From Octopus sinensis (Eukaryota), in NCBI RefSeq assembly GCF_006345805.1, contig NC_042998.1:97836001-97900000 (forward strand): 64,000 bases of DNA, read 5' to 3'. Positions 51,101-56,520 of the stretch are shown here, in pieces (the first letter of the stretch is position 1; each line of letters opens with the position of its first letter). The position numbers were made by a program, and so were the translations under genes. The notes below the pieces were generated by a model. It saw nothing but the letters and a program-made list of their open reading frames with translations. It ran no database searches and was not told the DNA's origin.

Positions 51101-51248
51101 TATGTAATATCTATTATGACTACTGGGCCACAATTGAAATCATTTTTATTGATAACTTCTATCATGATAATACAGTTCTATATTTAAGAGATGAGGAATT
51201 ATGCACATTATTTACATTTGACGGATATTTGTCCTCATCTTGTTTGTT

Positions 51249-51294
51249 AACACAACGCTTCGGCTGATATACCCTCCAGTCTTCATCGGGAGTC
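51249..51294 (-). ncRNA. Minimal type I HHR motif, mutated
   Basis: GACUC-CCGAUGA-A-GACUG-gaggguauau-CAGCC-GAA-G(not A)CGU-U-GUGUU. Helices I and II each have one mismatch. Confidence 0.6.
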
Positions 51295-51357
51295 TTGGGG
51301 GAAATTTCGAACCTGGGTTCTCATTCCTAAGGAATTTTTCGATGTTATTATTATTAG

Positions 51358-51428
51358 GTCACTGCCTTGAAACGAACTCAAAATCTTGGGGTTAGTAGCC
51401 CACGCTCTTAACCACGAAGGCATTTGCT
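51358..51428 (-). other. tRNA-like segment with Pol III A/B boxes inside the PLE 3' region
   Basis: GCCTTCGTGGTTAAGAGCGTGGG-CTACTAA-CCCCAAGATTTTGAGTTCGTTTCAAGGC: D-arm/A box, a 7-nt anticodon-like loop and a degenerate B box. Confidence 0.6.
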
Positions 51429-51466
51429 CATGGGCAATTATGGAGTGAATTTTAGATTTTATAAAT

Positions 51467-52096
51467 TTATATTTTCCTATCCTTCCTTAATACCGGTTCC
51501 CATATGTTATTCATATCTGCACTCGGTCTGCTTAGGAGGTTGTTGAGTCCTAGCATATATGCTGCTGATTTTAGTTTTCGTATTTTCCAGTGGTGTTCTC
51601 TGTTTATTATTTTAACTTCATCCCACAGTGGGAGGTAGTCTCCATTTTTCCATACATGATCAGCTATACCCGATTTATCAATATGTCCTCGTGTCACAGT
51701 TTTGCGATGTTCCTCTACCCTTATTGTGAGGGGGCGGCATGTTTTGTCTTTGTATAAGCTACCACAGCTGCATGGGATGGAGTACACGCAGTTTTTGGTC
51801 ATATTCTCTTCTGTTGGTGGTTTTACCCGAAGGAGATATTTGCGAAGTGTTGTATTACTCTTGAATACTGTCCTGATGTCATATGGGCCGCATATCTTTT
51901 GTATCTTTTCGGAGAGGCCTTTCACATAGGGCAGACAGACTGTAGACAGTTTATTGGTTTCATTCCCTCTTTTCTTCATAATTAGAGTAGATAGTATGTT
52001 TTTGGGGTAGTTGTTGCTTATTAGATTGTTACTGAGCTTGATCATTTCTTCGTGGTGGGTATCACGATCGCTGGTTATATTCTTTGCTCGATGCAC
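51467..52096 (-). pseudogene. PLE ORF C-terminal portion: RT thumb/linker + GIY-YIG endonuclease (209 aa open, catalytic motifs damaged)
   Basis: NNYP, LPYVKGLSEKI, VYSIPCSCGSLYKDKTCRPLTIRVEEH (GIY-YIG; YxG mutated), SGIADHVW and RKLKSA (E mutated). Confidence 0.9.
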
Positions 52097-53488
52097 TGAG
52101 CAATCCCTCTCTTTACACCGTAGGGATGGTGGGAATTGAAGTTAAGGTGTCGTCCAATGAAGGTCTGCTTGCAGTATACGACCTTCACTGGACGATACCT
52201 TAACTTCGATGCCTTAGCTTTTCTGGAGTACCACTTTTGAACTAGATCGTATTTTATTAAGTAGTTATATAACTGATTTCTGAATGTTTGGATATGCTGA
52301 AAGTTCGCAGCTCTGGATTTAATAGCATGCCTTCATTTTATTGAAATCTACTACCAATGCTTCTGGGGATCTCTGGGCTATAAATTGGTGGCGGTGTTTG
52401 TGATAATGATTATTATGATTACAATAATGATGTTAATATGAACGTGACAAGGAAGTAAAATAAGCATTAACCATTCCATCAATTTAGAAGGAATAAAAGG
52501 CAATACTATATATTATCTTTTCTTAGATCCTTTCCCAAATAGATGAGAGCACTTATGTGAGCTCAGCGTGTTAATCCACTCAACCTAAAGTTTCGAAAGC
52601 TATCTTAGCTATAAAAACATACAGAATATTATTTCTTGTTAATGTATTAATAACCCTATCTATCACCCCCGTGAACTTCTAAATTATTGTGTTCTAGCAT
52701 AGTAAAATGTAAGAAAATTGGTGCAAAACCGCAATGAAAGACTTCAGATAATGACAATAAACATGGTACACCAAATATAATAGATATCGTTATTCCATAT
52801 TCGACATCCTGTTCCGTTCTATAAAAGGTTATCCACCATGTAAGTGATGTTATGAACTCATCATAGGCCAATCCACTTTCTCACATTGATCTTTATTCCT
52901 GCTATGTCATGCTGAACCACTAATGAAAAATCTTGTCATCAATGCCAATACTTTCCTATAATTTGATCAATAAAAGTATAGTTTGTATACTGTATATAGA
53001 AAAATATAGAAATAAAGCAAGCTCAAATTAATCCGCTCTATCACTAAACAGCAAAAATATATTAAGCACTATATATGCCTGTAATGAAAAAGGAAAGAAA
53101 AACATCCCAAATACTCCAGTTTAGGATTATGTAATGGTTAAAACTGAAATTAGGGCCAATTGATTACTTTTTTAAACGACAGTAAATGATAATTCACGAA
53201 ACAAATATACAAATCATTTTAGGTGTTATATTAATAAATGTATAGATTATAAAACAAAATGAAGGCATGTTTTTTTCTGAGACGCCATGATACATACAAA
53301 TAGCAGGTCAACAACGGAAGAAAAACCCAAATACGAAAAAAAACAGAAGTCCAAGAGATGTTCTCAGTTAATATTATTAGGTTGACGCTGAAAGAAAGAC
53401 AAAAAGTTATAAAATTAAAGTTGTAGAGTAAAATCATAACGCTTTGGAAGTCCTTCATGAGATATACAGAGGAAAGTCCAGGGAAGAA

Positions 53489-53699: not shown

Positions 53700-54004
53700 G
53701 TTGTTTGTTCCTTCTCGAGCCACACCTGGCTCATAAGGGCCGGTTTCCCGGTTTCCTTGGCATATAGGCTCCCCACCTGGACGGGACACCGGCCCGTCGC
53801 AGGTGAGCTGCAAGACGCAGGAGGAGAGAGTGAGAGAAAGTTGTGGCGAAAGAGTCAGCAGAAGTTCGCCATTACTTTCTGCCGGAGCCGCGTGGAGCTT
53901 AGGCGTTTCGCTCATAAACACACACATCGCTCGGTCTGAGATTCGAACCCGCGATCTCTCGATCGCGAGTCTGCTGCTCTAACCACTAGGCCATGTGCCT
54001 CCAC
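53700..54004 (-). mobile_element. SINE family C with 12-bp TSD
   Basis: TACAATTCATTT at 53688-53699 and 54005-54016; intact A/B boxes. Confidence 0.92.
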
Positions 54005-55779: not shown

Positions 55780-56378
55780 GTGAAAGAGAAAGGATTTGGG
55801 ACAGTAATAGAAGAGTTTAAACAGCGTATCATAGCAGTAGCAGGCAAGCTCTCCAGATATCAGAAAAGAATAGATCGGTATTAACAGAATAGATTATTTG
55901 AGACACACAAGAGGAGATTTTATAACCAAATAAATAGTGGAGAACGAAGTACTGAAGATGAGAAATCTAATGCAGAAGAAGCTAGAAAGTTCCGGAGTAA
56001 TATTTGGGATAAGCAAATCAATCATAATGGGGGTGCAGTATGGTTAAAGGAAGTGAAGGAAGAAGCAGTGAGTGAGAAGCATCCAGATATAAGACTAATT
56101 AGTGCATTAATGAGTAAAGTGTTAGGGAAATTGCCGAATTGGAAGAGCCTAGGACCAGATTTAGTTCAAAGGTACTGGCTAAAGAAATTTAGTAGTCTAC
56201 ATGAGAGGCTGAGCGAACAACTTCAGGATTGCCTTAATAGAAGAATAACACCAGACTGGATAACTACAGTGGGGACAATACTCACCATTAAAGATAAGAG
56301 CAAGGATAATACAGGTAACAACTATAGACCAATCACTTACTTAGTGTGGAAGCTGTTAACAGGAATGCTTTCAGAAAA
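55780..56378 (+). mobile_element. R4/Dong-clade non-LTR retrotransposon, RT N-terminal fragment
   Basis: EEFKQRIIAVAGKLSRYQKRIDRY*QNRLF..RRFY..IW..HN..AVWL..KLPNWKSLGPDLVQRYWLKKF..PDW..GTILTIKDKSK..NYRPIT..WKLLTG. Confidence 0.82.
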
Positions 56379-56520
56379 CGTTCTGAGTTTAAATTCGTCC
56401 GAGGTCGACTTTGCCTTTCATTCTTTCGGGGTCGATAAAATAAGTACCAGTTGAACACTGGGGTCGATGTAATCCACTCATCCCCACCTCCCCCAAGCTG
56501 CCCATGTGGTAAAAAATTGA
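56378..56520 (+). mobile_element. SINE A, 5'-truncated, abutting the LINE
   Basis: Perfect central block GTCGACTTTGCCTTTCATTCTTTCGGGGTCGATAAAATAAGTACCAG. Confidence 0.85.

Follow-up and report, generated by a model that had tools for sequence, protein, structure and literature searches.

In the anole Poseidon element PAc, a Penelope-like element (PLE), the available account places a hammerhead ribozyme across the start of the open reading frame (ORF), a recognition signal in the first 172 nt of that ORF and an internal start of reverse transcription at two sites, and it reports that uncut RNA is the substrate of the reverse transcriptase (RT) in vitro (PMC11167929). The promoter of Drosophila virilis Penelope is described as lying in the pLTR and as internal, LINE-like and TATA-less, with an intron (PMC2377424). 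The minimal hammerheads of metazoan PLEs are reported to cleave weakly, as dimers (PMC4209133), and non-LTR retrozymes are described as deriving from PLE pLTRs (bioRxiv 10.64898/2026.07.22.740005; PMC7229834).

In the schistosome repeats Sm-alpha and Sj-alpha a Pol III promoter is followed by a hammerhead, and the upstream unit is said to transcribe the next (PMC6765202). The TRIMp3 elements Cassandra, Helenus and Ajax carry a small-RNA-derived Pol III promoter in their terminal repeat, for which a SINE insertion has been proposed as the origin; the author of that account expects Pol II for the autonomous partners, and Penelope is not mentioned in the accessible sections (PMC10886601). The terms tRNA, Pol III and promoter are absent from the available portion of the retrozyme preprint (10.64898/2026.07.22.740005), and the accessible parts of PMC8557442 and of the octopus repeat annotation PMC13282606 make no mention of a tRNA-headed PLE. 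In the full texts searched we found no description of such an element; Repbase, Dfam, subscription papers and supplements lie outside these texts and may show the head.

Here we compare with these systems a PLE copy in a stretch of 64,000 nt from Octopus sinensis (the window; contig NC_042998.1, positions 97,836,001 to 97,900,000), together with the family to which it belongs in the 2.72 Gb of genome searched. The arrangement is real and family-wide: in this Penelope element the RNA started at a tRNA head that had been captured, and we infer Pol III as the polymerase.

Results

The window copy and its family

The window copy (Table 1) is 92.7% identical to the family consensus. The earlier note had described the locus as ORF end, tRNA-like segment, (AAT)n and hammerhead; that order stands, and the position of the stop codon is corrected, the one first marked being the product of a deletion in this copy. 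A spacer of 60 nt separates (AAT)n from the hammerhead. The A box carries three changes, A58 is missing from the B box, and two substitutions, U4C and A15.1G, fall in the hammerhead core; because all three are broken, the copy is dead.

Table 1. Features of the Penelope-like copy in the window. Positions are those of the window; numbers with a sign are counted in the family unit.
Feature	Position	Strand	Remarks
5'-truncated Penelope-like copy	51166..52180	-	3' 1.0 kb of 2.65-kb unit
Short inverted arm at the copy's 5' end, as usual in Penelope insertions	52179..52213	+	
RT thumb end and GIY-YIG endonuclease of 835-aa ORF	51459..52180	-	
ORF remnant, C-terminus GIY-YIG-like	52180-51467	-	
Family stop codon	51461-51459	-	29 nt before tRNA position 1
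Early stop in window copy	51469-51467	-	due to 1-nt deletion in window copy
TATA-like octamer	51458..51465	-	-30..-23 from inferred RNA start; overlaps stop codon; by sequence, compatible with Pol II or Pol III
Inferred RNA start, G(-6)	51435	-	13 nt before A box; within hairpin 51436-51425
4-bp tetraloop hairpin, frequent cDNA fold-back site	51436-51425	-	covers -7..+4
tRNA-derived head without acceptor stem	51356..51429	-	
A box	51422-51412	-	damaged in window copy
B box	51379-51368	-	damaged in window copy
(AAT)n	51345..51355	-	length differs among copies
ATG opening the 835-aa ORF when the repeat is upstream of a full-length copy	51322..51324	-	
Minimal type I hammerhead (predicted) within first codons	51249..51294	-	features as described in PMC4209133
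Predicted ribozyme cut	between 51254 and 51253	-	
Penelope 'tail' between two clustered 3' ends, likely both RT start sites	51166..51205	-	compare the account in PMC11167929

When extended, the family consensus is a unit of 2,652 nt with the order RNA start, tRNA-derived head (75 nt), (AAT)n, ATG at +115, hammerhead, 835-aa ORF, stop, 23 nt and next head, the hammerhead lying in the first 25 codons of the ORF. In full-length copies the upstream repeat is joined head to tail (221 pLTR-ORF junction matches), and copies end 3' in two clusters about 35 nt apart. Since the unit read in tandem puts the head 5' of the ORF, the head is the leader of the transcription unit, not a 3' appendage. The internal (AAT)n is frequently expanded or interrupted by other insertions (L070, L072, L086-L089), with a Dong/R4-type LINE in L088.

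The tRNA segment is a fixed part of the family. All 30 copies picked by a 20-mer upstream of the tRNA continue into it, and no separate TSD flanking the segment is evident; the cassette is thus the family consensus, one of two possibilities that had been left standing, and the other, a chance SINE insertion in the window copy, is ruled out by the linkage. Among 30 copies picked by a tRNA 20-mer, 25 have the hammerhead part at most 1.4 kb away, the remaining five being inverted arms or interrupted copies, and 30 copies retrieved with the whole region, a query biased toward that arrangement, align end to end. Exact genome-wide matches number 5,394 for a hammerhead 24-mer and 5,754 for a 25-mer behind the hammerhead. 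Solo tRNA and hammerhead copies, which the earlier note had suggested looking for, exist without the ORF in the thousands, as judged by exact 20-mer matches genome-wide (4,938 inside the tRNA against 863 immediately upstream); at about 4.5% non-CpG divergence we estimate some 12,000 tRNA-bearing arms and 2,000 ORF-side arms. Family sequence is also present in sequencing runs under five organism labels.

The consensus 835-aa protein gives RVT_1 matches and aligns full length to PLE proteins, endonuclease region included. Its identity to an Anolis protein is 42% (91% of a 431-aa query aligned), the best unnamed match reaches 54% identity, and the N-terminal peptide encoded by the hammerhead also aligns in the closest relative. 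The Pfam GIY-YIG model has no match in the window fragment. The structural traits of PLEs are present as well, namely a partial-tandem pLTR, inverted 5' arms and an optional tail, as seen in the junctions and the two 3' end clusters. Going by sequence and structure, the family is an EN+ PLE of the Penelope/Poseidon type, with a single ORF for RT and, at the C-terminus, a GIY-YIG endonuclease. A search of the same genome with the Anolis protein yielded no second Poseidon-type family as a control, 30 of 30 loci belonging to this one. Elsewhere in the window, positions 55885-56454 (+) hold a 189-aa frame that resembles an RT fragment of a non-LTR retrotransposon, a label given by eye and without a Pfam match.

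By score, the tRNA likeness of the head is low. RF00005 aligns to positions 8-63 of the near-consensus copy L078 at 13.3 bits (gathering 29, E 7.9), ARAGORN at default finds no tRNA in the window or in the consensus, and Rfam at default finds neither tRNA nor hammerhead in the window. The consensus has a full A box and a full B box at the correct spacing; the acceptor stem is missing. Across 80 related Penelope loci the same A/B pattern occurs once, in a true tRNA-Leu gene unlinked to a hammerhead, and a B box follows the ORF in none of the five relatives in which a hammerhead core was seen there. None of the tRNAs from 30 loci could be named as the parent, the best match, Arg(TCT), being weak. 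Other SINE heads in the examined loci have little in common with the head except the boxes; one of another family, a tRNA-type SINE at 53700-54000 (-) of the window, likewise has only the boxes in common with it. The probable origin of the head is an ancestral tRNA-SINE or tRNA retrocopy, tailed by (AAT)n, that inserted into the repeat. Separately, we note LINE-like open frames adjoining tRNA genes on small contigs (L438, L449), possibly a retrotransposon associated with tRNA genes.

Copy ends cluster at the tRNA head

We scored 5' ends on arms anchored inside the tRNA, using three samples unselected for the 5' part (132 arms) and counting the arms of a single insertion separately. Thirty arms end at +9..+31, 72 at -9..+8 and 30 farther upstream (72/102 of those reaching +8), and in an independent replicate with 52 further arms the same classes numbered 10, 33 and 9 (33/42 of those reaching +8). 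Pooled, 105 of the 144 arms that reach the head (+8) end within -9..+8, a stretch of 18 nt (about 73%); ends upstream of the head are spread from -43 to beyond -759 (30 copies), at a per-base rate about 35-fold lower. In a loose-end consensus from the assemblies of three other organisms, the family sequence is lost at the same boundary of the head. A second apparent end hot spot, at 52180, proved to be an artefact of the query boundary, as did one at another seed boundary.

The 105 head ends comprise 69 inverted joins, one short fold-back and 35 ends without an inverted arm (26 + 9). In the 132-arm samples clean ends fall most often exactly on G(-6), with seven arms from six loci; clean ends of the replicate are less sharp, at -7 (3), -5, -2, 0 (3) and +4, and those at -7 would result from a single untemplated base. 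A(-2), a minor end, is like G(-6) a purine preceded by a pyrimidine. Most G(-6) ends are direct joins from ORF positions +300..+990 onto -6, which a hairpin could not produce and which we take as the mark of an RT that reached the 5' end of the RNA and jumped. Insertions with such direct joins onto the RNA start are L307, L343, L347, L363, L373, L382, L383 and L384. We also note that joins of this kind, from +300..+990 of the ORF to the start, may represent either template jumps or circular RNA intermediates, and that they may show how partial tandems originate.

Templates that start at the head also run on into the ORF. Among 15 arms in which the head is joined to the ORF start, eight start at -8..+7, a further one is a fold-back and three reach beyond -20; one long copy (L412) starts at -2 and spans the whole ORF into the 3' head, and another (L297) starts at about +3 and was traced for about 1.1 kb into the ORF. 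Of the uses first envisaged for the cassette, transcription of the next tandem copy, presumably by Pol III, is therefore borne out, in that the template RNA started at the head and extended into the ORF that followed. Cleavage by RNase P at the tRNA-like structure was considered as a source of the 5' ends and set aside, as that structure has no acceptor stem and position 1 is preceded by many of the ends, at a distance of 2-7 nt upstream.

The polymerase

We think it reasonably likely, on balance, that the tRNA head served as an internal Pol III promoter that placed the start of the RNA 13 nt ahead of the A box, family copies mostly stopping at the head. A start 13 nt before the A box is the usual Pol III geometry. 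The proposal that the PLE had captured an internal Pol III promoter is thus upheld as regards a fixed head with complete boxes and an RNA start at the head, whereas Pol III itself we infer.

Rather unlikely, in our estimation, is that Pol II makes an RNA starting at -6, either via an upstream TATA-like box or via a TATA-less internal promoter like that of Drosophila Penelope, with the tRNA head as a passive remnant in the leader. The TATA-like octamer at -30..-23, the internal LINE-like promoter described for Penelope pLTRs (PMC2377424) and the need to translate an 835-aa ORF, for which an uncapped Pol III RNA would require another route, all speak for Pol II. However, the start coincides with the head and lies at a SINE-like distance from the A box, and both boxes are intact although the remaining tRNA fold has decayed. 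The extra G before -6 that is expected from cap copying was seen in only one of six loci, which is a weak point.

The composition of the unit bears on both polymerases. It contains no T4 runs, where 2.9 are expected by codon shuffle (p 0.024-0.028). Among related ORFs of at least 400 aa, 38 of 38 have at least one T4 run, and among those of at least 780 aa, 15 of 15 have at least four; this comparison set started from 80 related loci, of which 42 were dropped for lack of an ORF of at least 400 aa. T runs are just as scarce in Dong-type LINE fragments from the same genome (0.30 and 1.22 per kb, with a TT O/E of 0.80-0.85, versus 0.42 and 0.80 in the Penelope family), and after this control with host LINEs we dropped the absence of T4 as proof of Pol III. 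Since T-run poverty is common to host LINEs, a point in favor of Pol II, it implies only that Pol III could read through the unit. On their sense strands, Dong-type LINEs show a depletion of TT and T runs like that of the Penelope family and unlike that of related elements of other hosts. Among the indexed runs that carry the family, none is listed as RNA. Raw RNA reads from a related organism fall equally on both strands, with no pile-ups at starts or ends, in data that are unstranded and dominated by passive copies.

Hairpins, hammerhead and short copies

We regard it as improbable that no RNA starts at the head and that the pile-up is a hot spot of fold-back or truncation, caused in a longer RNA by the tetraloop hairpin and the tRNA structure. 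Fold-back on the hairpin at -7..+4, with 443 perfect junctions genome-wide, does account for many head ends, and because 69 of the 105 are inverted joins and a similar palindrome at +119 gathers 8 of 96 ends (about 8%), hairpins inflate the pile-up. Nevertheless, 35 ends have no inverted arm, several exact joins at -6 come from unrelated ORF positions, and copies that span a stronger hairpin at about +457 show no clear pile-up there; moreover, about 73% of arms stop at the head as against 8% at +119. An RNA start at the head, with its ends multiplied by fold-back, remains our preferred reading.

The predicted hammerhead, judged by its sequence, is of the minimal PLE type, situated in the pLTR and overlapping the ORF start. 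The Rfam hammerhead models match neither the window nor a near-consensus copy. The core that had been predicted for the consensus, CUGAUGA..GAAACGUU, is indeed the commonest form among 286 copies; it is exact in 49, and both core boxes are kept in 152. A second, unrelated family of minimal-hammerhead repeats, with a T-rich upstream region, was met at L112, L122 and L304; it probably represents the terminal repeat belonging to a different Penelope-like family.

Cutting of the RNA at the ribozyme has left no trace in the copies: of 82 arms with their anchor behind the hammerhead, 0 have a start at most 2 nt from the predicted cut, which agrees with the uncut substrate reported in vitro (PMC11167929). 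Short copies run 50-85 nt past the cut to both usual Penelope ends, and copies are dispersed or inverted, not tandem monomers bounded by the cut. Between 160 short and 128 ORF-side arms, a pool that includes query-biased loci, there are no diagnostic non-CpG sites, and divergence is equal in the two groups (0.041-0.049). Because they are without diagnostic changes, we class the short copies as terminal repeats standing alone and not as a SINE of their own, and the suggested SINE-retrozyme hybrid lineage finds no support in these sites, in the equal age or in the extension of the copies past the cut. That the short copies nonetheless form an independent Penelope-mobilised SINE or retrozyme lineage spreading from solo masters of its own seems to us very improbable: tRNA-bearing arms are about six times as numerous as ORF-side arms, solo copies contain the promoter boxes and the presumed protein-binding region, and L254, L243 and L620 have the inverted hairpin loop without a first arm, as fold-back daughters would, but short and ORF-side arms are alike in sites and divergence, many head-starting templates run on into the ORF and no ends are marked by the ribozyme cut. 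As an observation in its own right, five solo copies (L254, L243, L620, L116 and L137) have an inverted hairpin loop and little or no first arm, and could be fold-back daughters acting as sources.

Discussion

The junction copies, along with both long copies whose start lies at the head, suggest that the RNA begins at the tRNA head and runs into the ORF. By analogy with anole Penelope, as described in PMC11167929, reverse transcription by the encoded protein would be initiated internally, some 120-155 nt downstream of the ORF start. A start in the 5' repeat could then give the abundant solo copies of 270 nt that end at the RNA start, and a start in the 3' repeat could give ORF-bearing, 5'-truncated copies such as that in the window. 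At the 5' end of the RNA the cDNA would fold back on the small hairpin or jump to another template, a mechanism suggested by structures that we observe in the copies. Uncut RNA would be the template, the hammerhead cut leaving no mark.

A bolder and more tentative proposal, which we hold to be possible and yet doubtful, is that an autonomous coding element ran wholly on Pol III, its captured tRNA promoter giving a terminator-free 2.7-kb RNA that was both mRNA for the 835-aa RT-endonuclease, with no normal cap, and template for about 12,000 SINE-like solo copies. If this is true, it would be a one-step route from a Penelope element to a SINE.

Pol III promoters are already known from SINEs and, as described in PMC10886601, from small non-autonomous LTR elements; a successful autonomous Penelope family with RNA starting at a tRNA head would be an exception to the expected need for Pol II. 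Two matters become testable with the 330-nt leader, namely expression of a long ORF from Pol III RNA in an animal and the role of the Penelope hammerhead when placed between a promoter and an ORF. In addition, the copy ends amount to genome-scale confirmation in vivo of internal RT initiation and of an uncut RNA template, previously seen in vitro for one element. By our estimate, moreover, some 12,000 arms resemble a tRNA-SINE but are Penelope terminal repeats.

Compared with tRNA-derived SINEs, the family has the same 5' tRNA-derived head with A and B boxes, at a score below the Rfam cut-off, but its short copies do not form an independent non-autonomous lineage, having no diagnostic sites and the same age. 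The family's putative Pol III promoter ahead of a hammerhead, and the probable transcription of a unit from the one upstream, have counterparts in Sm-alpha and Sj-alpha, which are described as non-coding tandem repeats cut to monomers (PMC6765202), whereas the octopus cassette leads an autonomous ORF and has dispersed copies with no ends at the cut. Retrozymes, too, are hammerhead elements related to PLE pLTRs, but as described they are non-coding tandem arrays (10.64898/2026.07.22.740005; PMC7229834). The octopus repeat resembles TRIMp3 in having a small-RNA-derived promoter in a terminal repeat, its promoter activity being putative; TRIMp3 are described as non-autonomous LTR elements of 0.3-1.3 kb with PBS and PPT (PMC10886601), and the octopus repeat belongs to an autonomous 2.65-kb PLE with partial tandems.

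The closest likeness is to PLEs themselves. With metazoan PLE hammerheads as described in PMC4209133, the predicted octopus hammerhead has in common a short helix I, an extra base before helix II, G10.1-C11.1, a palindromic 15.2-16.2, no helix III and a predicted need for dimers; unlike the PLE hammerheads of that description, it is accompanied by a tRNA head. Like the Penelope/Poseidon elements described in PMC11167929 and PMC2377424, the family has an ORF with RT and C-terminal GIY-YIG, a partial-tandem pLTR, inverted 5' arms and two 3' ends, as well as a predicted hammerhead that overlaps the ORF start, a putative promoter in the pLTR and, probably, an uncut RNA template. Unlike known Penelope, as far as its description in PMC2377424 goes, the octopus family has at the front of its pLTR, where the RNA is inferred to start, a tRNA-derived head with A and B boxes.
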